DNA from: Armatimonadota bacterium
GTDB taxonomy: Bacteria > Armatimonadota > Zipacnadia > JAUWAU01
NCBI GenBank assembly: GCA_030601885.1
Contig: JAUWAU010000016.1
Coordinates: 66,817-130,816 of the forward strand
Length of the DNA stretch: 64,000 nucleotides
Direction of reading: 5' to 3'
The notes under the pieces are model-generated. The model worked only from the letters and a program-made list of their open reading frames with translations, was not told where the DNA came from and did no database searches. A program made the translations under genes and the position numbers. Below are positions 24,835 to 35,870 of this stretch, piece after piece. The first letter of the stretch is position 1; the number at the start of each line of letters is the position of its first letter.

Positions 24835-25080
24835 GACAGCTTCCTCCTTACACGAGGTCTCGAGAGTCCGGACTGACAAATGGCGCCCTTGCGCCACCGG
24901 CAGCTTCGACATCTGTGCTCTACATCCTCCGAATACCGCGAATGGACCCGACAGGCGCGGCCGGGGCGTTTGCCAGTTCAAGGTGATCTCTTTACGTTTT
25001 CACACTGGCCCATTTCGCAGTTGCCGTACGACAACGACTCGTGGCGCTGCGGGAGGCACCTGCGCGAGCCATCGCATACC

Positions 25081-25455
25081 TCGCTCTTCGCGGACTTCGC
25101 CGAGACCTTTCTCGACTACGCTGGGGTGCCCATCCCGAAGGCGATGCGAGGCCGAAGTTTCCGTCCGCTTCTACAGGGCAAGACGCCAGCGGATTGGCGC
25201 AAGTCGTCGTTCTATGCCTACTGGGGCCGCCGAACCAAGCACTACGGAGTCCGAACCGAGAGATATAAGCTGGTGATTTGCCATACCGGTGAGCGCGAAC
25301 TGTATGACCTGAAGACAGATCCACAAGAGCGCAGGAGCGAGATCGGTAACCCCGAGTATGCCGCCGTGGTGAAAGAGTTTGAGGCGGAGCTGAAGAAAGT
25401 GATGGAGGAGATAAGAATCTCACAGGATGTTCTGCCCGGAAACCGAGGAGGATAG
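25081..25455 (+). pseudogene. 3' remnant of a sulfatase gene
   Basis: Only the C-terminal sulfatase region is present (FAETFLDYAGVPIPKAMRGRSFRPLLQG ... HYGVRTERYKLV ... ELYDLKTDPQE). There is no N-terminal catalytic CxPxR part. Upstream codons of the track ORF look non-coding. Confidence 0.65.
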
Positions 25456-25465
25456 GACCAAGACC

Positions 25466-28400
25466 ATGACTCAAAAGGTGCTGATTCGGCGGGCAATCGC
25501 GTGGATGAGGACGCCGGCCACGATCTTGGCGTTGGCTGCGGCGTCTGCGACCATGTCGGCGGCGGACTGGCCGCAGTACCGGGCCGACGCCACCCGGAGT
25601 GGATACGCGCCGGAGACGCTGCCGAGCCAACTCTCCCTCAAGTGGGTTCGCCATGCGAGGCATGCGCCCGATCGGGCATGGGTGGGCCGGAGCCTGGCGC
25701 GGTCACGGATGAAGTTTGACTGGGCGCACAGCGTAGTTGTGGCCGATGGCATCGGTTATTTCGGCAGTTCGACAGATGACAAGCTGTACGCTATCGACGC
25801 CGCCACCGGTGAAGAGAAATGGAGTTTCTTCACCGGCGGGCCCATCCGCCTTGCCCCTGCCGTCTGGAAAGATCGTGTGTTCGTCGTCAGCGATGATGGG
25901 TTTCTGCACTGTCTGTCGGCACTGGATGGCACGGAGCTCTGGAAGGTGCGCGGCGGCCCCGATCCCGATCTGGTGATCGGCAACGGGCGCGTCGTGTCGC
26001 GTTGGGTGGCGCGTGGCGGTCCGGCCGTTCGGGACGGCGTGGTCTACTTCGGCGCGGGCATCTGGCCCACGGATGGGGTCGCCATCTACGCCGTTGATGC
26101 TGAGAGCGGCAAGGTTCTGTGGTGCAATGACAACGCCGGCGCCCTGGAGATCGACCAACCGCACATGGGCGCCTATTCCCGGGGAGGCGTCGCGGCGCAG
26201 GGATACCTGGCGGTTACGAGCGACAAGGTGTTCGTAATGACCGGTCGCTCCATCCCGGCGGCGTTTGACCGGAAGACCGGACGCTTTCTCTACTTCCACC
26301 TGAGTCGGTACGGAGGGAAGACGCCGTGGGGTGTGGGCGGTGGCGATGTGGTAGCGACCGATGATGTCTTCTTCACGGCGGGCTTCGCCTTCGATACCGC
26401 AACGGGCATGCGACATCATCAAGTTGGCAAACGTAACTGGTGGATCCCTTTCGTCAGGGACGGACACCAGTATCACGGCGAATTCCTGGTAGGTGTGCGG
26501 CAAGTTATCGCTGCTACGCCGGATGGGTTCGTCAGGTCGGAGGGCTCGACCGTATACGGCTCCGCCCTCTCCAGGAAGACCTATGCTGTCCGCCGGGAAT
26601 GGGAGACCTCTGTTCATACGCCCCGCCTGGCATCTGTCGGACCGGCGAACAAGGGATACATGGAGAGAATCGACGACGCTCCTCTGGTGGCGGATCAGTG
26701 GTCTGTCGAAACAGACGGTCCGATCCAGGAGCTCATTGTCGCCGGCGGAACCATCGCGCTGGGCTCGGCCAACCGGGTCTTTCTCGTGGACGCAGTATCG
26801 AGGAGAGTCACGTGGTCAACCGAACTCGACAGCGCCGTCTACACATTGGCCGCATCGGACGGCTGCCTGTACGCCAGCACCGGCAAAGGGACCATCTACT
26901 GCTTCGGTGCGCAGGATGTGAACGCGGCTCCGAGAGAGATCGAGCTGAGCTCGAGGGCCTCGCCGTATCCGGACAACAGCCTCGCGCGTAGGGCGGCCCA
27001 GGAGATCATTCGCCAGACGGGCATCACCAGCGGTTACTGTCTGGATCTGGGATGTGGCAATGGTGCGCTGGCCTATGAGCTGGCGAAGCGGACCGATCTT
27101 CACATCATTGGCATAGATGCCAATCCGGCTAACGTCAGGGAAGCGCGGCGCAAACTGGATGCCGCCGGGCTCTACGGGGTGAGCGTGGCCGTCCTGCAAC
27201 GGGCTCTCTCGACCACGTATCTTCCCGACTACTTTGCGAACCTCATCGTCTCCTCATCGGCACTTCTCACGGGCACCGGCGGCTTGCCCGAGGGAGAGAT
27301 CGCCCGCCTCCAGCGCCCTTACGGCGGCACAGTTTGCCTGGGGACGCCGGGGGCCATGACTGTCAACGTGCGCGGCGAACTCGAGGGCGCGGGCAGTTGG
27401 ACTCATCCGCTTGGCGATCCCGGCAACACCATGTGCTCGGGCGATGAGCTCGCCAGAGGCCCGCTGGGGGTCTTGTGGTACAGGGACGAGACCCTCGAGA
27501 CCATTGACCGCCACGGCAAGAACCCGGCGCCGCTGTTCTACAAAGGCGTGCTGCTGCGCGAAGGCATCAACGCCATTGACGGAATCGACGCCTACAACGG
27601 CCGCGTCATGTGGCGCGTTTCTTTGCCAGAGCTGTTGGGCGCCTACCTGGGCGGCTCGGGCGTCGGGGCGACCCAGGTCGCAAACACGTACTGCGTCGCC
27701 GATGACGTCGTCTACGCCCGACAGGGGAGCCACTGCCTACTACTGCACGTCTACACGGGAAAACGTCTGGACAGATTCGAAGCGCCCAAGCATCCGGACG
27801 GACGCAAACACGACTGGACGTATGTCGCTTGTGAGGACGGCATTCTGTACGGCGCGCTCGCCAACGACACGCACATCGTCAAGTCGCAGCACGGAAGCGG
27901 AAACGAGCGCACGCAGGTCCCCATGGACAGGCACTTCACGGAATCCTCCATGGTCTTTGCCATAGACGCGGATACGGGCGAGGTGAAGTGGACGTGGGTT
28001 CCTGAACAGTCGATCCGGAACAATTCCTTCGCCGTCGGGAATGGCTGCATCTTCTTCATCGATCGCCCCGTGGCCGAGATTGACCGAATCCTCCGTGAAG
28101 TCGCCGAGGCGAAGCGCCGCGGAGGGGAGCCCCTGCCGGCCCATCCGCTCGGCAGGTTGTTGGCTCTGGACGGGAACACGGGGGAGTTGCTGTGGGATAG
28201 GAAAGACAATGTTCACGGTACCACGCTCGTTCTGAGCGCCAAACATGACGCGCTCCTCATGTGCTACAACCACGTCGGTCGCGCTCTTGCCTCGGATGGC
28301 TTCAATCAAGGAACCACCTGCTTTCGGGCGTCGGATGGAACGATTCTGTGGGAAACGACGCAGAAGCTGGGCGGGCAGCGTCCCGTGGTCGTCGATCGGA

Positions 28401-29053
28401 CGATGTACAGCCCCCCGGGCGCGTGGGATCTGCTGACGGGAGAGCCGAAGACCGTAATGCGAAATGGTCAAGAGGTGCTCTGGCAAATCAAGGACCGGCG
28501 GATGGGTTGCGGCCCGTTGGCCGGCTCGCAACACCTGCTAATGGGGCGCGCGGGGGCCATGGGATACTACGACCTGGCGTATGATCCCGGGAGATACGAG
28601 TACTTCGGCGGCGCGCGGGCGGGATGTTGGATCAACATGATCGCGGCCGGCGGCATCGTTCTGGCGCCTGACGACAGCCGGGCCTGCCGCTGCGCCTATC
28701 AGAACCAGGCGTCCGTTGCCCTCAAAGAGTATGGGGAACGTCCGCCGAGGGTCACGGTGGCGAGCGAACCGGCGAACTACGCCTATGACATCGCCAGGAG
28801 GTCGTATAGCTTCGTTGGCAAGCTCATCATCGAGATGAGTCATCCCAAGGACGATGTCGAGATACGCTACACACTGGACGATAGCTATCCAACGATGGGA
28901 TCAGCTCTCTACACGGGGCCCATTACATTGACGGAGACAATGCCCGTGCGGGCCTCGGCGTTCAGGAACGGCAGGAAAGTGGCCGTTCGCGACGGCATCA
29001 TCTTCACCAAAGTCCGGAAGCTGGACACGACCACCGGGAAGAAGGGGCAATGA
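25466..29053 (+). CDS. Secreted PQQ-like beta-propeller protein with an internal class I SAM-methyltransferase domain and a C-terminal chitobiase/hexosaminidase-type (Fn3-associated) domain
   Basis: Signal peptide present, followed by propeller blades (ADWPQYRAD, KLYAIDAATGEEKWSF, LHCLSALDGTELWK, VLWCND). The SAM motif I is GYCLDLGCGNGALAYELAKRTDLHIIGID. A second propeller follows. The C-terminal block is IRYTLDDSYPTMGSALYTGPITL. The start could instead be the ATG at 25427. Confidence 0.75.
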   Translation: MTQKVLIRRAIAWMRTPATILALAAASATMSAADWPQYRADATRSGYAPETLPSQLSLKWVRHARHAPDRAWVGRSLARSRMKFDWAHSVVVADGIGYFGSSTDDKLYAIDAATGEEKWSFFTGGPIRLAPAVWKDRVFVVSDDGFLHCLSALDGTELWKVRGGPDPDLVIGNGRVVSRWVARGGPAVRDGVVYFGAGIWPTDGVAIYAVDAESGKVLWCNDNAGALEIDQPHMGAYSRGGVAAQGYLAVTSDKVFVMTGRSIPAAFDRKTGRFLYFHLSRYGGKTPWGVGGGDVVATDDVFFTAGFAFDTATGMRHHQVGKRNWWIPFVRDGHQYHGEFLVGVRQVIAATPDGFVRSEGSTVYGSALSRKTYAVRREWETSVHTPRLASVGPANKGYMERIDDAPLVADQWSVETDGPIQELIVAGGTIALGSANRVFLVDAVSRRVTWSTELDSAVYTLAASDGCLYASTGKGTIYCFGAQDVNAAPREIELSSRASPYPDNSLARRAAQEIIRQTGITSGYCLDLGCGNGALAYELAKRTDLHIIGIDANPANVREARRKLDAAGLYGVSVAVLQRALSTTYLPDYFANLIVSSSALLTGTGGLPEGEIARLQRPYGGTVCLGTPGAMTVNVRGELEGAGSWTHPLGDPGNTMCSGDELARGPLGVLWYRDETLETIDRHGKNPAPLFYKGVLLREGINAIDGIDAYNGRVMWRVSLPELLGAYLGGSGVGATQVANTYCVADDVVYARQGSHCLLLHVYTGKRLDRFEAPKHPDGRKHDWTYVACEDGILYGALANDTHIVKSQHGSGNERTQVPMDRHFTESSMVFAIDADTGEVKWTWVPEQSIRNNSFAVGNGCIFFIDRPVAEIDRILREVAEAKRRGGEPLPAHPLGRLLALDGNTGELLWDRKDNVHGTTLVLSAKHDALLMCYNHVGRALASDGFNQGTTCFRASDGTILWETTQKLGGQRPVVVDRTMYSPPGAWDLLTGEPKTVMRNGQEVLWQIKDRRMGCGPLAGSQHLLMGRAGAMGYYDLAYDPGRYEYFGGARAGCWINMIAAGGIVLAPDDSRACRCAYQNQASVALKEYGERPPRVTVASEPANYAYDIARRSYSFVGKLIIEMSHPKDDVEIRYTLDDSYPTMGSALYTGPITLTETMPVRASAFRNGRKVAVRDGIIFTKVRKLDTTTGKKGQ

Positions 29054-29283: not shown

Positions 29284-30615
29284 TTATCCGGCGGCCATTT
29301 TCGGCTGCAGGCGGCGCGCGGCTGCCCACAGTGCAATGGCAAGCCAAAGCCGCATCTGTGGGGCGTAACGGCGCCAGGAGCGGACGAAGCTCGATTCGAA
29401 CACCCACGTCCACGCCAACGCGGCAGGCAGCGCCAGAAGTGAAGGCAATCCGCCAAGTGCCACCCAAACCTGCCCCCCGCCCGGTGCTGCTACTGCGCTC
29501 CACCATTCCCGCAGCGCCTCCGGGTATTGCATAGCCAGGCACACTACCAGGCCAATGAGGGCCAACTGAGCGACCGCCTCCCCCGCCACCCAGAGCACCG
29601 CCCACCACAACCTCCCCCAGGCGCTCCAGCCCTGCGTGGCTCGATTCATGGTCTCGGGCGCCACCAGCGAGTCGATGCGGTCGAGCAGATCCTCCCACGC
29701 ATCCGCATCGTCGAGCCGCACCAGACCCAACGCATCGGTCAGCAGCCACCAGCCATCGGTCCTCGTCCCGACAAGCAGGCACCAGGCTGCAGTGAACTGC
29801 AGGAAAAGCGCCGCGGCCAGGGCGGCGGGCCAGGCGGTGCCCACATAGATGGCATACGAAACGACCGCAGCCACAAGCTGAAGGTACACGCCACCAGCGT
29901 CCACGATACACCGCCGCGCGCGCGGGAGCCTCCAGGCTTCAGTGACATCCGCACTCCAGGATGCCGGCAGGAGCCCGGTCACATCGCCATGAGTACCGGA
30001 GAATCTTCGGCACGCTGCGAGATGACCTAACTCGTGCAAGAAGACGAGCAACGGCGCCAGGAGGCTCAAGACCAGGACGTCGAGCCACGAAAGCTGGTGC
30101 AGCGCGCGGGCTACTTGGGGAAGCCCATCGAACACGACCATCCGGACTAGCATGGCCAGTACGGCGACCAGTACAGCAGCCGCCACCGGCCGTGCGAATA
30201 GGACGCCCAGCAACGGTGTAGCCACCCCGAGCTGGCCCGCCTTGACAGTGACCCGCCAGGCACCCGCCGTTTTCTCGACAAAACGCGGAGGCACTGGCTC
30301 CATGTCCGGTTCGGCGTCGTCGTCCTGGGCGCGGCGGCCGGCCAGGAGGCCTCGTGGCCCCAGCCTATTCTCCAGAGCCCACTCAACCTCCCACCGCGTG
30401 ACGTGGCGGCGCCAGAGGCGGGAGACGGCGCGCGCAATTCGCTCCTCAGACCGCATCCCATCGATGCAGGAGAGGAGTTGATAGAGGGACTCGGAGATGC
30501 GGAAGAACCTGGCGTCCGGTAGCCGGACCAGGTAGGCCGGCTGGGGCAGATCCACGTCGAAGGGGCCGATCCAAACGCCCTCGGCGAGGCGTGGCTTGGC
30601 GGCGCTCGCGGGCAT
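29284..30615 (-). CDS. PqqD/RRE-like domain fused to an M50-like multi-pass membrane zinc metalloprotease
   Basis: The N-terminal block is FFRISESLYQLLSCIDGMRSEERIARAV (PqqD-like). HELGH sits within a TM segment. TDGWWLLTDALG resembles the second M50-type motif (xDGxxxLxD). At least six hydrophobic segments are present. The ATG lies 3 nt after the stop of 30619..32718. Confidence 0.65.
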   Translation of the reverse strand: MPASAAKPRLAEGVWIGPFDVDLPQPAYLVRLPDARFFRISESLYQLLSCIDGMRSEERIARAVSRLWRRHVTRWEVEWALENRLGPRGLLAGRRAQDDDAEPDMEPVPPRFVEKTAGAWRVTVKAGQLGVATPLLGVLFARPVAAAVLVAVLAMLVRMVVFDGLPQVARALHQLSWLDVLVLSLLAPLLVFLHELGHLAACRRFSGTHGDVTGLLPASWSADVTEAWRLPRARRCIVDAGGVYLQLVAAVVSYAIYVGTAWPAALAAALFLQFTAAWCLLVGTRTDGWWLLTDALGLVRLDDADAWEDLLDRIDSLVAPETMNRATQGWSAWGRLWWAVLWVAGEAVAQLALIGLVVCLAMQYPEALREWWSAVAAPGGGQVWVALGGLPSLLALPAALAWTWVFESSFVRSWRRYAPQMRLWLAIALWAAARRLQPKMAAG

Positions 30616-30618
30616 GGC

Positions 30619-32718
30619 TCAACTCTCTTGGAGGGCCGTGAGCAGCGCCCGGAGGCAGAAGGCGGTGGTCACCGTTGCGCTCTTGAAGGTCAACACGTGT
30701 GCAGACGTCGTCGCCTGCCGCTCCAACCGGAGGCGCGATAGGTCCACTTTCACGAAGGGACTGGCGGGCCATGCGCCGCTGCTGCGCTGGCGGCCGAGGA
30801 GATATGACAGCCCCCGCCTCCCGGCCGTGTCGAGCTCCGGTTGGCCCTCTTGCAGATCACACGCCAGTACACCGAAGGCCGTCTCCAGAGGCGTGCTTTC
30901 CGGTTCTCCCCATCCGCCATCCTGGTGCTGCGCCTGCAGCACGTACTGCAGCCCGCGCGCCAGCGGCTCGCAGTCGGGCTCGACATCAGCCAGAAGCCGA
31001 CAGCACAGCCACGTGGGATAGGTTCGACCCCAATACCAGTGGCCAGACCAACTGCCGTCCGAGTGCTGGACGCTCGCCAGGTAGCTTACACCGGCTCGCA
31101 GAACCTCGCCGAAGGCCTGCTTATCGTACAAGCAAACCCCGAACAGCGCATTGGCAACGACGTCCAGATCCGGCTCTTCGCCCCATGCCTCGTACATTCG
31201 TGCCTTGGCCCGCAGGGCGTCCTCATCGTCGGGGTCGGCCAGCCACGTGTCCACGGCACCATTTGAGCGCACATTGTGCTCGGCCAGCAGGGCCACGACA
31301 TCGCCGCACAGCTCGGCCATTCGCTCCGGCGCCGCACTGGCCAAGGCAGACAGGACGGCGCCCAGCGTGTCGGCATCCGCCGGCAGTCCGCTCACGCCCG
31401 GGATGTACGTCCATCCTCGTTGCGGGCCTTCGAGGCGGCTGCGTGCCAGGTAATCAACCTCGGCCTGCAACACTTCGTCAGGCACCATCAGACCGACGCG
31501 TCGGCAGTGCGCGAGGGCCTCCAGGATAAGGGCTCTGGCGAACACGTCGCCCGTGCGAAGGTGTCCACCCTTCGCCAGGGGCTCCGGTTGGGGGAAAAAC
31601 ACGGGGTGCCGTGCCTCGACAAAGCCCCGCTGCTGCTCCTGGACCAGCAGCCTCAGAGCCGACTCAGTCGCCTCGCGCGCCCGCTCTGTCGTCACTTCAT
31701 CCGATGCCGGTCTGGGGAGGGGCTCTGCCTCAATCCGGGCTCGCTCTTTTGTTGTAGCGCGGAGCAGTTCAAGGTCCTGCTGCAGGTTGGCTGAGCGAGT
31801 TCGTGCGCGCTGGACGTACCCCAGCCAGCCTGGACAGCCCTGCTCAGCGGCCAATTCGTGCGCGTGGTCAAATGCTGCGATGGACTCGCCCAGCGCCTCC
31901 TCAGCCAGCCCCGAGAAGTACATGAATTTGCCCACCAGCTCGGCGTCTGGCTTCTCGTCGCCCATGATCTGGTTGGCTAGGCCGCTTTCGATGAGGGTCC
32001 GGGTCAGGATGTAGGAGTAGTTCCCCCGCTCATAGTCGAACTTCCAATCGCAAAGATCGTCGTGCAATTGCAGGCCCATGGCGTGGTGGTCTTGGGAGGC
32101 GGTCAGCGGCTCAATCTTGTCGGGCTCGTGACCGAGCAGCCCCAGCGCCGTGGGGACCAGCTTGGCACATGCCTGCTTCCCCGTAGCCGAGCGCCAAAGC
32201 TCCTCTCCCGTGTAGGGGATCACTTGGCCGTCGTGGCGGCTGCGCTCCGCGACCATGACACCGGCCTGCTCCAGCCAGAAGGCGTCAAAGCGGAGCCAGA
32301 AGTCCGAGCTGGCGTCGAACAACTCCTGAAACGCGCGCGAGGCTTGCTGCAGACGATAGTGGCAACTCAGATAGCTGGCCAGGATGAACGGCCGCGCGTG
32401 TCCAAGCTGTGCGTCCACCAACTTGTCAAGCAAGATGGCGTGCTCAGCGACGAGCTGCGCACCAACCGCCAGTGTGCGCGCGTCCTCTGCCGTAACCCGC
32501 GGGAAGCCAGACAGAAACAGATAGACGTAATCATGGAACGAGCAATAGGCGGCGATGCTGTCAACCCACGTCCCGTCCTTCTCAATCACGCCGTCCATCG
32601 CTTCCCACTCGATGTAGGGCGATTGCTTCAGTGACTCATAGAAGCTGCCCACCACCTGCGTCGCGAGCGCCCAGACTTGCTCCACCTCGTGTGCCATGTG
32701 AGAATCGGGCTCCTGCAT
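30619..32718 (-). CDS. Fusion protein: N-terminal polyprenyl-synthase-like (class I isoprenoid fold) domain plus C-terminal QW-repeat prenyltransferase/terpene-cyclase-like alpha/alpha barrel
   Basis: N-terminal half: GLQLHDDLCDWKFD sits at about residue 215-228, where a second Asp-rich motif is expected. ATGKQACAKL is KT-like. A degenerate first motif, AILLDKLVD, sits at about residue 95-102. C-terminal half: four QW-like repeats are present (YLARSRLEGPQRGW, YLASVQHSDGSW, YVLQAQHQDGGW, YLLGRQRSSGAW), plus LPADADTLG. The ATG at 32718 is preceded by GAGGAG; the track start at 32724 is a TTG. Confidence 0.6.
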   Translation of the reverse strand: MQEPDSHMAHEVEQVWALATQVVGSFYESLKQSPYIEWEAMDGVIEKDGTWVDSIAAYCSFHDYVYLFLSGFPRVTAEDARTLAVGAQLVAEHAILLDKLVDAQLGHARPFILASYLSCHYRLQQASRAFQELFDASSDFWLRFDAFWLEQAGVMVAERSRHDGQVIPYTGEELWRSATGKQACAKLVPTALGLLGHEPDKIEPLTASQDHHAMGLQLHDDLCDWKFDYERGNYSYILTRTLIESGLANQIMGDEKPDAELVGKFMYFSGLAEEALGESIAAFDHAHELAAEQGCPGWLGYVQRARTRSANLQQDLELLRATTKERARIEAEPLPRPASDEVTTERAREATESALRLLVQEQQRGFVEARHPVFFPQPEPLAKGGHLRTGDVFARALILEALAHCRRVGLMVPDEVLQAEVDYLARSRLEGPQRGWTYIPGVSGLPADADTLGAVLSALASAAPERMAELCGDVVALLAEHNVRSNGAVDTWLADPDDEDALRAKARMYEAWGEEPDLDVVANALFGVCLYDKQAFGEVLRAGVSYLASVQHSDGSWSGHWYWGRTYPTWLCCRLLADVEPDCEPLARGLQYVLQAQHQDGGWGEPESTPLETAFGVLACDLQEGQPELDTAGRRGLSYLLGRQRSSGAWPASPFVKVDLSRLRLERQATTSAHVLTFKSATVTTAFCLRALLTALQES

Positions 32719-33045
32719 GCACAAACTCCTCTCTCGCCAGAGGGCGGAATGCGGTTTCGTTCAGTCTAGGCGCACTGACAGCGCTGCTGGCTCAGGGGCG
32801 GCGCCCGCTTCCGGCCCCAGCTACTTTGTCCGCACCGCGCCGGCCCGCCATGCGCGAACGCTGTGCTCAAGGCGGCACCGACATCGTAGATGCCTGCCCA
32901 TTGTTGGCACAGGCCATTGGCCGGCCGCCTATAGGGTCTACGTTCGGCAATGAACGGGATCCCGCGTGCGCGCGTTGGGAGGAGCGAGGGCTGTGGGGTT
33001 TTGTATCAGGAAGGCTCCATCCGGCCCCCGACGATGTGCAACTCA

Positions 33046-33176
33046 GAGCCTATCCCAAAACCCCTCGACTTGTCATGCTGAGCCTGGCGAAGCATCTCGC
33101 AATAGCCTCCGGGACGAGATTCTTCGCGTTGCTCAGAATGACATTTCTTCGAGCGGCTGGTTTTAGGATAGGCTCT
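33046..33176. repeat. Nested palindromic intergenic element
   Basis: Outer arms are GAGCCTATCCCAAAACC and GGTTTTAGGATAGGCTC. Inner arms are TGTCATGCTGAGC and GCTCAGAATGACA. Each pair has one mismatch. It lies in the spacer between the precursor peptide gene and the fusion gene. Confidence 0.8.
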
Positions 33177-33512
33177 AAATCACGGGACAGCTCCAGCACT
33201 GCCTTCCCAGCCCTCGAGAGCGATTCCCTAACCATCCCGTGTCCGCTTGCCGCTGCTGCCAAGCCCGAAACGGCCGGCTCTCGCGGCCCCGGGTAGTCGC
33301 AATGACACCCTTTCGCGGCTGCCGCCGGCCGGGGCTTGGTCCACGTTGTGCACCAGCGAAACGTCGCCCTGCCCGTGAGCACGTGTGCCCGTGCGTGCAT
33401 GAGCCCGTTCCCCAGAGCGTCACACCGCCTCGCGTCCACGGATAGCACCCCACGGAGCCCTGACCCTCCGCCTGCCCTCGCTGTGGTGCAGAGGGTCCAA
33501 TTCCCACAGCGG

Positions 33513-33704
33513 CTACTCCGGCTCTGGCTTCGGCATTTCTTTCTTGCCCCAGTCGCCGCACGCTTTGAAATTGTCGCACACGCACCCCCAAGCCTCCCCA
33601 CGAACGTCCAGCTCCTCCATGGCCAGCCGTTCCTCAAGCTCGTCTATGGACACCGCAGCGAACAACTCGGTGTTCAATGACTCGATTTGCTTACCAGGGC
33701 TCAT
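33513..33704 (-). CDS. Candidate RiPP precursor peptide (63 aa)
   Basis: The sequence is MSPGKQIESLNTELFAAVSIDELEERLAMEELDVRGEAWGCVCDNFKACGDWGKKEMPKPEPE. The ATG at 33704 follows a GGAGGA RBS (33711..33716) by 6 nt. It lies 97 nt downstream of the rSAM stop. It is hidden in the C-terminus of the 172-aa track ORF, whose upstream part overlaps the rSAM gene out of frame. Confidence 0.6.
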   Translation of the reverse strand: MSPGKQIESLNTELFAAVSIDELEERLAMEELDVRGEAWGCVCDNFKACGDWGKKEMPKPEPE

Positions 33705-33801
33705 GCTGTGTCCTCCTTGTGGAACCGCCACCCCGCCTCCGTGGGCTGCTGGATGCGACCTTTTCCAGGGCCCACACGGAGCCGAACGGTTCTGCTGTTC
33801 C

Positions 33802-35208
33802 CTATGCTGCCGCCGTAGATGAAAGCTGTTGCGCCGACTTGTCACTGTTGCGATCCAGCCACTCGACGTACGCCAGCGGCGCCACTCGTTGGAAGAGCTC
33901 GGGAAAGTCAGCGCAGTGCGGCTCGTACAGGTCGCCGGTTTCCCAAAAGGCGCGCTGCGCGCAGCCGCCTCCGCAAAGCAGGGCGTAGGGACATTTCCGA
34001 CACTGTGGTATGTTCGCCACCGTCCGCGCACGCCATCGCTCGACCGCCTCGTCGTCCAGCTCTAGATCCGGCACATACCTGCCCAGTTTGCCCTCCGGCG
34101 TCCGCACCGCTTCCCAGCATGCATACACATCGCCGGATGGGTCGAACAGATACATGGCTCTATTGGCGCCGCAGAAGGACGGCTGCAGGCGCGGAAGGCC
34201 CGTCTGCCGCAGCAGGCCAAACACGGTTCTGCGTAAGCCGAAGTCTGTACGCAGACACGAGAGTTCGGGATGGCTGGCCTGCAATCGCTGAAGGCCCTGC
34301 ATCATCTCGACCGGAGAAAGAGTTTGCCGAGCAGTCGATGGGGCATACACCACGTGGCAGTACGGGTGGAAGTTTTCGTGTGCCGCCCATCCCTGCTCCC
34401 GATAGAAGCGGGCCAGCTCCGGTATCAGGCTCAGATTGCTGCGGTCCACGTTCGTCCGCAGGCTCACGTCCACGCCGGCTTGAAGCGCGAGGGCGATGTT
34501 GTCGCTGATAGCAGCGAAGGTGCCGCGGCCGTCAGGCCCAATGCGGCGCTGGTCGTGGATCGGCTGGGGCCCGTCCAGGGTGATTTGGATCTCCTCGATC
34601 TTGCCCGCCCCCAGCAAGTGGCGGTAGTGTGCCAACCCTACGCCATTAGTAGTGGCGTGCAAGGCATAGCCGGCCTCAGTGCTCCTCTGGACCATGTACT
34701 CCACTATCTCCAGATTCCGGGGCATCAGCGGCTCGCCGCCATACAGCGTGATTGGCGCCCGCTGCTGGTCCTCGGGCTGCAGCTTCTCGATGGCCCGGAA
34801 CGCAGCGTCCACCGTGGCCTCATCCATGTGCGTCTCGCCACGCTCGGCGTCACGCCCGTCACGCCCGGCCTGAATGCAGTAGGGGCAGCGCAACTGACAG
34901 TCGTAGGTCGGAATCAGGTGAAATGTGGTGTACCGCCGATCCCGCCGATGAATCGCATCGGCAATCCGGCACATCAAGTCCCGTTCCTCTTCGGGGGTCT
35001 TGTCCGTGAGATACCCCCGCTGACGAAGCTGCGCCGCCGTTTGGGGCAGAATGTCTTCCGGCGCATGGGCGCAGCCATCCGCTGCCTCTCGCAGGAACGC
35101 TGCCACCTCACTAGCGACAACATCCACCGCACCCGAATAGCCGTGCACCAGAAGAACGCGACCCGATCCGGGCAAATCCGCCATCATCGTGTAGTCGCTT
35201 GTCCGCAT
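33802..35208 (-). CDS. Radical SAM / SPASM-domain peptide-modifying enzyme with N-terminal RRE-like extension
   Basis: CQLRCPYC (CX3CX2C) sits about 104 aa from the favoured start, MRTSDYTMM. The full 7-Cys SPASM pattern is present: C-x12-G-x4-C (CGANRAMYLFDPSGDVYAC), CX2CX5CX3C (CRKCPYALLCGGGC), then PHC. The track ORF starts 108 nt further upstream. Confidence 0.85.
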   Translation of the reverse strand: MRTSDYTMMADLPGSGRVLLVHGYSGAVDVVASEVAAFLREAADGCAHAPEDILPQTAAQLRQRGYLTDKTPEEERDLMCRIADAIHRRDRRYTTFHLIPTYDCQLRCPYCIQAGRDGRDAERGETHMDEATVDAAFRAIEKLQPEDQQRAPITLYGGEPLMPRNLEIVEYMVQRSTEAGYALHATTNGVGLAHYRHLLGAGKIEEIQITLDGPQPIHDQRRIGPDGRGTFAAISDNIALALQAGVDVSLRTNVDRSNLSLIPELARFYREQGWAAHENFHPYCHVVYAPSTARQTLSPVEMMQGLQRLQASHPELSCLRTDFGLRRTVFGLLRQTGLPRLQPSFCGANRAMYLFDPSGDVYACWEAVRTPEGKLGRYVPDLELDDEAVERWRARTVANIPQCRKCPYALLCGGGCAQRAFWETGDLYEPHCADFPELFQRVAPLAYVEWLDRNSDKSAQQLSSTAAA

Positions 35209-35318
35209 GTGCACCACCGGGCGTTGACATCTCCCAACGGCCAAACGCCAAGCCGGGGCAGCTTTGTCTCTGCTGGCTCGTCCCACCGCGCCCAGCCCGT
35301 TGAGGTAACCAGGCACGT

Positions 35319-35870
35319 CTATGCGTCGATCCGGCCCATTAGAGCCTCGCTGAATTGAAACTGCTGTGTCTCGACTGCACGGTTGTCGAGCGCGGACAGG
35401 CTGGACCTCACACCCCTGGTCTGGCTCATGCTGCGGGACATGCTGGGGTCCTTGACAACCATTATGGCCGTGTACATGGGGGCTCCTTCCGTGCCCACCA
35501 CCAGCTTGTAGATGGCTGCGCGCTGGATGCCCGCCTGTTTGCCGTACTGCGCAAACGCCTGCTGCAAGTCCGCCTCAAGCTGGGCCTCCTGCCCCGCTTT
35601 TGGCTTCCAGTACTGAGCCATGATAACGGGGCTGGCACGAAGCTGTGCAATGGTAGGCGCGTTCGGCATCACCCGTTCGACGCCCGCAGCCCGTGTGGAC
35701 GGTGTCCGCGTCCGACCCAGCGGGCCCCGCCGCGTTCGCAGTTGTGCGGAGGCGCGCTTGGGAAGAATCAGCGCACCCAGACCGCCCAGCAGCGATCCGG
35801 CTAAGGCGCCCAGTCGTATGAGCGCCCGGCGTCGGGCACTGCCTGCCTTCGTCTTACGGTCCTCTGGCAT
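35319..35870 (-). CDS. Hypothetical exported small alpha+beta protein (ABM/Dabb-like?)
   Basis: The N-terminus is TAT-like (SARRRALIRLGALAGSLLGG). The C-terminal ~100 aa (VIMAQYWKPKAGQEAQLEADLQQAFAQYGKQAGIQRAAIYKLVVG...AIMVVKDP) resembles a ferredoxin-like monooxygenase/stress-barrel fold. It lies directly upstream of the rSAM gene on the same strand. Confidence 0.45.
   Translation of the reverse strand: MPEDRKTKAGSARRRALIRLGALAGSLLGGLGALILPKRASAQLRTRRGPLGRTRTPSTRAAGVERVMPNAPTIAQLRASPVIMAQYWKPKAGQEAQLEADLQQAFAQYGKQAGIQRAAIYKLVVGTEGAPMYTAIMVVKDPSMSRSMSQTRGVRSSLSALDNRAVETQQFQFSEALMGRIDA

Follow-up and report, generated by a model that had tools for sequence, protein, structure and literature searches.

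We analysed a 64,000-nucleotide stretch of an Armatimonadota genome (contig JAUWAU010000016.1, hereafter the window) and found that its gene at 29284-30615 very likely encodes a recognition element of the kind that serves peptides made on ribosomes and modified after translation (RiPPs), termed an RRE, joined to a site-2 protease (S2P). We are fairly confident that the protein serves as the RRE-guided leader peptidase of a small RiPP cluster spanning 29284-35870 on the minus strand, and a 63-residue peptide whose gene lies 3 kb upstream in the cluster is its probable substrate. A first-pass annotation, made from the sequence alone, had proposed a protease that recognizes a leader peptide directly; the RRE fold, the S2P core and a leader motif shared across the protein's clade support that reading. 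The architecture itself has already been published (daptides, 2023); the window protein adds a divergent member to it, from a RiPP cluster of another and rare type. The result provides a firm annotation for a gene left blank by standard domain searches.

Predicted domain architecture

The first-pass annotation had likened the N-terminal ~90 residues, including a string (AYLVRLPDARFFRISESLYQLLSCIDGMRSEERIARAVSRLW) that we located at residues 27-68, to PqqD-type RREs. Structure prediction agreed with this view. AlphaFold2 (AF2) models, built from 77- and 76-row alignments, placed three β-strands (residues 15-19, 27-31 and 37-41) ahead of three α-helices (42-49, 57-68 and 74-85). The predicted local distance difference test (pLDDT) score was 82-97 at residues 10-90 in these models, 80.9 for the full-length model as a whole, and 86 for an isolated model of residues 8-98. 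When the isolated domain was compared with the PDB using Foldseek, the five best matches were all chains of TbiB1, a lasso-peptide RRE crystallized with its leader (probability 0.89-0.96, template modelling score 0.54-0.60, ~87 aligned columns); the RREs of LynD/TruD, SkfB and McbB stood lower in the list. Consistently, when a profile of 58 family N-termini was searched against the PDB, the top match was M. extorquens PqqD (5sxy; E = 0.006), and two more PqqD entries were listed. Further supporting the assignment, the Pfam PqqD model (PF05402) matched 43 of 76 N-terminal segments from genomic relatives (best E = 2.5e-6), and among 60 full-length relatives the TIGR03859 PqqD model matched seven and the RiPP-binding ApyI model three. 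The outcome that the annotation had treated as fatal, an N-terminal domain without an RRE/PqqD-like fold, was contradicted by the AF2 fold, the Foldseek matches and the PqqD profile. The prediction of a PqqD-type RRE is thereby supported by the agreement of independent lines and not by one score. The linker that follows had a pLDDT below 50 at residues 98-107.

The remainder of the protein had been described as a multi-pass membrane domain of M50 or S2P type, with HELGH in a transmembrane helix and an Asp-bearing later block, TDGWWLLTDALG; all of these features stood up to analysis. Topology prediction by hydropathy and AF2 indicated about six membrane helices, including segments at about 144-162, 175-206, 240-258 and 264-282. 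HELGH (residues 194-198) lies at the inner end of the second, in a helix modelled at 177-206 with a hydrophobic core at 175-193. AF2 placed further C-terminal helices at 325-363, 391-407 and 418-442 with lower pLDDT. The later block was found at residues 286-297, and H194, E195, H198, D287, G288 and D294 were invariant in alignments of 60 and 77 sequences. Pfam Peptidase_M50 matched 38 of the 60 relatives at E ≤ 0.01, and the family profile retrieved the S2P of M. jannaschii (MjS2P, 3b4r) first in the PDB (E = 0.0016). Similarly, the top two Foldseek matches of the full model were 3b4r (probability 0.99) and SpoIVFB with pro-sigma-K (8vjm, probability 0.90). Two NCBIfam protease models also recognized the family: the daptide model NF041824 matched 59 of 60 relatives and the YydH/LiaK epipeptide model 58 of 60. 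The 141-residue N-terminal part contains 20 Lys and Arg residues, which fits a cytoplasmic location for the RRE, where the precursor and the radical S-adenosylmethionine (rSAM) enzyme of the cluster would be.

The protease gene is real and under purifying selection. Its closest homologue, on a metagenome contig (L001; loci are cited here by such numbers), is 69% identical, with a dN/dS of ~0.21. Region by region, the two are 89% identical over residues 8-90 and 74% over the membrane core, against 64% for the C-terminal part and 38% for the linker, making the RRE the best conserved region. A full HMMER scan covering 1.8 billion representatives returned 2523 relatives with E ≤ 1e-3, of which 1014 reached E ≤ 1e-10; it was used in place of word-indexed searches, which were swamped by membrane-helix words and yielded 2 and 7 proteins. 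Most HMMER relatives aligned from residue ~6 to ~300, and the N-terminal and HExxH domains therefore travel together. HExxH was present at about position 140-310 in 151 of 151 listed proteins (150 HMMER matches and one protein, P0002, from an earlier search).

Candidate precursor and conserved gene neighbourhood

The 63-residue open reading frame (ORF) was the only peptide candidate that the first-pass annotation could find, and our data single it out as well. A strong Shine-Dalgarno sequence, AAGGAGGA, lies ~7 nt upstream. The peptide comprises a leader, IESLNTELFAAVSIDELEERLAMEEL, followed by a core that begins GEAWGCVCDNFKACGDWG, and it ends in KPEPE. In related loci, the stretch from the rSAM gene to the protease gene holds one to seven small ORFs that share a leader followed by a Cys-containing core, and precursors with the leader SLNxxLxxxFSIEELExRLE(T/M) were found in 13 loci of the protease clade. 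The leader region reads MTSLNSHLLSEFSIEELEARLETDP in P. clara, PLNEDIFDEFSIQELEQRLETKPWICGANC in Balneola, SSLNAADLDVEELESRLEMAAAVPNADCWANAC in Eisenbacteria, TSLNDDLLVEMSLEELEKKIEFAAAPSSCC in Ignavibacteria and IESLNTELFAAVSIDELEERLAMEELDVRGEAWGCVCDNFKAC in the window precursor. A hidden Markov model (HMM) built from 16 leaders of other loci, with the window left out, had a sole match among the 1271 open frames of the 64-kb window, namely the frame of the 63-residue ORF (E = 0.0028; next best E = 3). The peptide is kept in a near-identical strain (L084) with two changes in the C-terminal tail. Searching the precursors against NCBIfam matched no curated family. The shared leader offers a possible handle for genome mining. 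At one locus (L016:6034-7592, on the Ktedonosporobacter rubrisoli chromosome), seven tandem precursor genes with a near-identical leader, WEIEGLNDEDITAELLDERVE, and variable CxC-rich cores lie between the rSAM and fusion genes.

Relatives in genomes were collected with a narrow alignment built on the NPFxRFDGYW motif, which returned 80 loci. In 11 of them a full-length homologue of the cluster's rSAM enzyme (27-39% identity) adjoins the protease on the same strand, upstream in 10 and downstream in L013. These 11 loci represent at least six phyla: Ignavibacteriota, Balneolota, Bacteroidota (Paraprevotella clara, Segatella copri and a Muribaculaceae plasmid), Elusimicrobiota, Chloroflexota (Ktedonosporobacter rubrisoli) and Eisenbacteria, with two unclassified bacterial metagenome-assembled genomes (L013, L035). 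Homologues of the 701-residue protein encoded immediately upstream of the window protease, a fusion of two enzyme-like domains, adjoin the protease in L001, L004, L014, L015 and L016, and in L011 as judged by neighbour clustering; including the window, the fusion is thus present in seven loci.

A tree of 77 proteases split into two clades of 22 and 55 rows, each with 100% local support. The smaller clade holds the window protein and every rSAM and fusion context, and the larger consists of Planctomycetota and Nitrospirota proteins. The latter are ~745 residues long and comprise PqqD, M50 and C-terminal HlyD domains (Pfam on L027), and their gene follows GAF-HlyD and HlyD genes. A consistent link of homologues to unrelated functions, such as HlyD-type export without peptides, was what the first-pass annotation held would undermine its proposal; the HlyD-linked homologues form this separate sister clade. 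The co-occurrence that it proposed as a check was observed, as rSAM genes adjoin the protease in the 11 loci above and ELExRLE precursors occur in 13. Linkage of the 22-member protease clade with rSAM enzymes and ELExRLE-leader precursors is conserved. The RRE-fused intramembrane protease of daptide type is accordingly not confined to daptides and serves a separate, phylogenetically wide set of rSAM RiPP clusters.

The protease gene was found in 0 of 60 genomes of the window's own class; its distribution is therefore sporadic, and the class offers no vertical comparative signal. The metagenome scan found only two contigs, from near-identical strains (97-99%), and both have this row of genes. 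The cassette of rSAM gene, ELExRLE precursor and RRE-S2P protease also occurs in human or animal gut Bacteroidota, at L008 (Paraprevotella clara), L010 (CP061010.1, an 18.8-kb Muribaculaceae plasmid, and the one plasmid-borne relative) and L012 (Segatella copri). A gene for an outer-membrane β-barrel/CarboxypepD_reg protein lies between the rSAM and protease genes in L010 and L012 (Pfam on L012; the L010 ORF is of equal size), and an O-antigen-ligase-like/TPR gene follows the protease in L008 and L012 (Pfam on L008; the same neighbour cluster in L012).

Proposed mechanism and alternative explanations

In the mechanism that we propose, the RRE would dock the leader segment S-I-D-E-L-E-E-R-L of the 63-residue precursor in the cytoplasm. 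The flexible linker of ~40 residues would tether the RRE to an S2P core of six or more helices and let the precursor core reach a zinc site close to where a transmembrane helix ends on the cytoplasmic side; H194, H198 and D287 would form this site, and E195 would act as general base. The rSAM/SPASM enzyme would first modify the Cys-rich core, and the prenyltransferase-cyclase-like fusion would probably lipidate it. After both enzymes had acted, the protease would cut the leader from the core at the membrane, and it might also help to release the product. That the RRE binds this leader, in which order the steps follow, where the cut falls and whether the protease has a part in export are inferences. 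As the enzyme that likely takes off the leader at the end of a rare rSAM-plus-terpenoid RiPP pathway, the protease would be needed to reconstitute that pathway.

Several observations weigh against this proposal. The window protein by itself matched PqqD in neither Pfam nor NCBIfam and scored E = 1.4 against PF02163; it matches no Pfam family, and the RRE and M50 assignments draw on profiles of the family and on predicted folds. E-values from Foldseek were weak (0.06-0.2 overall, at least 0.06 for the RRE and 0.1-0.2 for the full model) alongside high probabilities. Weak Foldseek E-values are usual for a 90-residue domain. The second S2P motif carries the signature NxxPxxxxDG, and the family consensus here is LNPFxRFDGYWLLSDLxGV; N281 and P282, conserved at 90% or more in the family, are replaced by L281 and V282 in the window protein. 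The motif reads LLVGTRTDGWW in the window and LPAGHRTDGWW in the close homologue, so the Asp ligand is kept while Asn and Pro are replaced, and catalysis could be altered or weakened as a result. The protein also sits on a long branch (2.08). Most relatives have a Pro after the leader motif; the window leader has none, so its sequence does not reveal the cleavage site and we predict none. No exporter gene was seen in the cluster. Finally, a 790-bp spacer with an inserted palindromic element lies between two gene pairs, precursor with rSAM on one side and fusion with protease on the other. Co-transcription of the two pairs is not assured.

Some of these points lend weight to other explanations. 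The loss of the conserved Asn and Pro and the long branch would suit an impaired or inactive pseudo-protease, that is, a membrane scaffold or exporter that binds the leader and brings the precursor for lipidation while another protease cuts it. Also in keeping with such a scaffold, conservation is higher in the RRE than in the catalytic core (89% vs 74%), a related locus (L015) has an additional Rce1-like CAAX protease, and deletion of EpeP does not abolish epipeptide maturation (review). We nevertheless consider it unlikely: the window protein and its 69%-identical homologue both retain the catalytic Glu and all three zinc ligands, a dN/dS of 0.21 indicates maintained function, and the window's cluster contains no other protease gene. 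A further alternative is that the N-terminal domain is a generic winged-helix module for binding DNA or protein, with the choice of substrate left wholly to the membrane domain. RREs are structurally winged helix-turn-helix domains, Foldseek also listed the non-RiPP C-terminal domain of GdmN and PKMT, and the window sequence itself gave no Pfam PqqD match. This is very improbable, however, given that the top five structural matches are an RRE co-crystallized with its leader, the family profile matches PqqD first and PF05402 directly matches 43 of 76 homologues; moreover, the clade and a conserved leader motif are found together, and RRE-Finder had picked out the homologous domain in the daptide protease (bioRxiv 10.1101/2023.03.08.531785).

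The spacer of 790 bp between the protease side and the precursor gene, together with a fold and HExxH/D motifs like those of RseP and SpoIVFB, could instead indicate a regulatory S2P that cuts an anti-sigma factor or another membrane protein and has RiPP neighbours by chance. Such a role is very improbable. The protein has a PqqD-type RRE in place of a PDZ or CBS domain, and its gene starts 3 nt from the stop of the maturase-like fusion. At least 11 loci from different phyla keep the rSAM and precursor neighbourhood, RiPP proteases give the best NCBIfam matches, and we saw neither a sigma nor an anti-sigma gene in the cluster. We rejected the regulatory assignment on the missing PDZ and CBS domains and the conserved RiPP context.

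Known relatives, lipidating partners and the gene row

The N-terminal RRE and intramembrane S2P of the window protein are shared with the daptide protease MpaP/DapP, an RRE-dependent intramembrane peptidase termed 'RRE-peptidase' (Ren et al., bioRxiv 10.1101/2023.03.08.531785), and the two likely act in a similar way. Residues 30-363 of the window protein align with the daptide_HExxH model NF041824 (E = 3.9e-16). The daptide leader motif ELExMEAP, which ends at position -1 (bioRxiv 10.1101/2023.03.08.531785), resembles the ELExRLE(T/M)x(x)P of most clade precursors; by analogy, precursors of the relatives may be cut just after the Pro. Both pathways also have hydrophobic or membrane-active products. 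They differ in that the window protease has an rSAM/SPASM maturase and the isoprenoid-synthase/cyclase-like fusion as partners and has lost the Asn and Pro of the second motif, whereas the daptide set comprises the DUF-RRE protein MpaB, the alcohol-dehydrogenase-like MpaC, an aminotransferase and a methyltransferase, with a precursor ending in a C-terminal Thr (bioRxiv 10.1101/2023.03.08.531785). We therefore did not assign the system to the daptides: the protein scored 59.2 bits against the NF041824 equivalog cut-off of 300, genes for an oxidative decarboxylase, an aminotransferase and a methyltransferase were not seen in the cluster, and the 63-residue peptide ends in Glu and not in the invariant Thr.

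M50 proteases also remove the leaders of epipeptides, and the epipeptide protease EpeP is believed to combine cleavage with export (review). Like the window protein, YydH/EpeP/LiaK (NF058609) is an intramembrane HExxH protease that matures an rSAM-modified RiPP, and by analogy a dual role in cleavage and export is possible for the window protein. The epipeptide rSAM enzyme is an epimerase, whereas that of the window is a SPASM Cys-peptide maturase, and the 246-position NF058609 model has no counterpart of the N-terminal RRE. Assignment to NF058609 was rejected at 17.2 bits against a cut-off of 225, the match covering residues 172-301 only. Canonical S2Ps of PF02163 (MjS2P 3b4r, SpoIVFB 8vjm and RseP) likewise place HExxH in one transmembrane helix, with an Asp ligand further along in a DG motif. 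They carry PDZ or CBS accessory domains and act on signal-anchored regulators, whereas the window protein carries an RRE, its proposed substrate is a soluble leader-bearing peptide and its NPxxxxDG motif is degenerate.

The RRE-M50-HlyD tri-fusions of Planctomycetota and Nitrospirota (Pfam on L027, with HlyD_3) have RRE and M50 halves homologous to the window protein, and in several of their loci nearby cargo bears an N-terminal LExRxLL-type tag. They differ in an extra periplasmic adaptor of ~330 residues, in operons with GAF-HlyD and HlyD genes instead of rSAM genes, and in their separate clade. Large ORFs of 790-2536 residues lie near the tri-fusion gene in L028, L047, L048, L057, L061, L069, L076 and L080 and carry an N-terminal tag such as VERLEDRRLLAG or IESLEPRLALT. 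The tag is similar to ELExMEAP of daptides as well as to the ELExRLE leader found in the rSAM clade.

Turning to the partner enzymes, the 701-residue fusion has an isoprenoid-synthase-like N-terminal domain with HDDLCD and a QW-repeat cyclase-like C-terminal domain. The rSAM enzyme resembles NCBIfam TIGR04463 (E = 3.5e-36) and has a SPASM domain. Its ORF was drawn from a GTG at 35316, and homologues align from residue 37 (MRTSDYT...), so the true start is probably the ATG at 35208 (M37). A profile of the ~100 residues before the rSAM cluster gave nothing interpretable against the PDB, and we claim no RRE for this enzyme.

About half of the clade loci have a lipidating enzyme beside the protease. 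Apart from the fusion, neighbour clustering placed a lipid-A-type acyltransferase of ~385-400 residues in four loci (L003, L036, L049 and L081). The L003 enzyme (L003:3024-4181; PF03279, E = 3.7e-12) is fused to a C-terminal PqqD/RRE domain (E = 1.3e-6); the L036 ORF (L036:7013-8233) matched PF03279 weakly, below the cut-off, and those of L049 and L081 were assigned by sequence cluster. The L003-type acyltransferase could be a RiPP N-acyltransferase of a type that we have not found described. Trp was present in the precursor core in 5 of 5 fusion loci with a precursor found (window, L004, L011, L014 and L016) and in 0 of 7 loci without the fusion (L003, L006, L008, L010, L012, L013 and L049; Fisher p = 0.0013). 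Specificity for Trp has been reported for peptide prenyltransferases resembling trans-isoprenyl diphosphate synthases, for example the P domain of ChrPC (review), and our result fits Trp as the prenylation site. We hypothesize that bilayer-partitioning substrates would be well served by a protease that works within the membrane. Tentatively, and with more doubt than belief, we suggest that the 22-member clade consists of dedicated membrane-embedded leader peptidases, possibly releasers, for lipidated RiPPs, because lipidating enzymes are common beside the clade and the active site lies within the bilayer, where such substrates would partition. As part of the same suggestion, RREs across an RRE-S2P superfamily (daptides, the 22-member clade and the HlyD tri-fusions) would read one ancestral Φ-E-x-L-E-x-R-Φ address, and such an address, if real, would make for a portable leader and protease pair. 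At L015:2286-3092 (Ktedonobacteraceae), an Rce1-like CAAX prenyl endopeptidase (PF02517, E = 5.5e-17) is encoded between the fusion and the RRE-S2P protease, a second membrane protease beside the prenylating enzyme.

The features of the cluster are collected in Table 1.

Table 1 Positions of the protease, its parts and the neighbouring genes in the window.
Feature	Position	Strand	Remarks
RRE-fused site-2-type intramembrane metalloprotease gene	29284..30615	minus	ATG start, 443 residues; ORF
PqqD-like RRE, residues 8-90	30346..30594	minus	AF2, Foldseek, profile to 5sxy, PF05402 matches of homologues
Flexible acidic linker between RRE and membrane domain, residues ~91-130	30226..30345	minus	Low pLDDT, low identity
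S2P/M50-like catalytic membrane core, residues 131-300	29716..30225	minus	Hydropathy, AF2 helices, 3b4r/8vjm
HELGH zinc-binding/catalytic motif, H194 E195 H198	30022..30036	minus	Invariant in alignment
Second S2P motif TDGWWLLTDALG, residues 286-297	29725..29760	minus	D287, predicted third zinc ligand
C-terminal membrane extension, residues 301-443	29287..29715	minus	At least 2-3 more hydrophobic helices
701-residue fusion gene, isoprenoid-synthase-like and QW-repeat cyclase-like	30619..32724	minus	Pfam SQHop_cyclase_C, 1.1e-14
63-residue candidate precursor peptide gene	33513..33704	minus	Shine-Dalgarno, shared leader, leader HMM
rSAM/SPASM RiPP maturase gene	33802..35208 (ORF to 35316)	minus	Pfam Radical_SAM, SPASM domain
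183-residue ORF, N-terminus like that of twin-arginine translocation (TAT) substrates	35319..35870	minus	ORF call

Read along the minus strand, the row runs from the 183-residue ORF through the rSAM/SPASM gene and the 63-residue ORF, across the spacer, to the fusion gene and lastly the protease gene. The fusion ends with TGA at 30619-30621 and the protease begins with ATG at 30613-30615; the first-pass annotation had put the start 3 nt past the stop, and the three intervening nucleotides are indeed GCC. The 183-residue ORF is kept (90%) in strain L084 and was not seen in the distant loci. Flanking genes on both sides are unrelated and lie on the opposite strand; one encodes a 1208-residue propeller protein, and the other presumably a purM-type AIR synthase, judging by its appearance.

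Two differences between strains concern the spacer and the flank. A 131-bp stretch of the spacer (window 33044-33174) is absent from the 97-99%-identical contig L084, where the alignment stops at 33175 and is taken up again at 33043. This palindromic element looks like a recent insertion of a small mobile element inside the cluster. The near-identical strain contig L083 agrees with the window to either side of the propeller gene region (25054-28623), and the segment between differs in length, so gene content downstream of the protease differs between strains.

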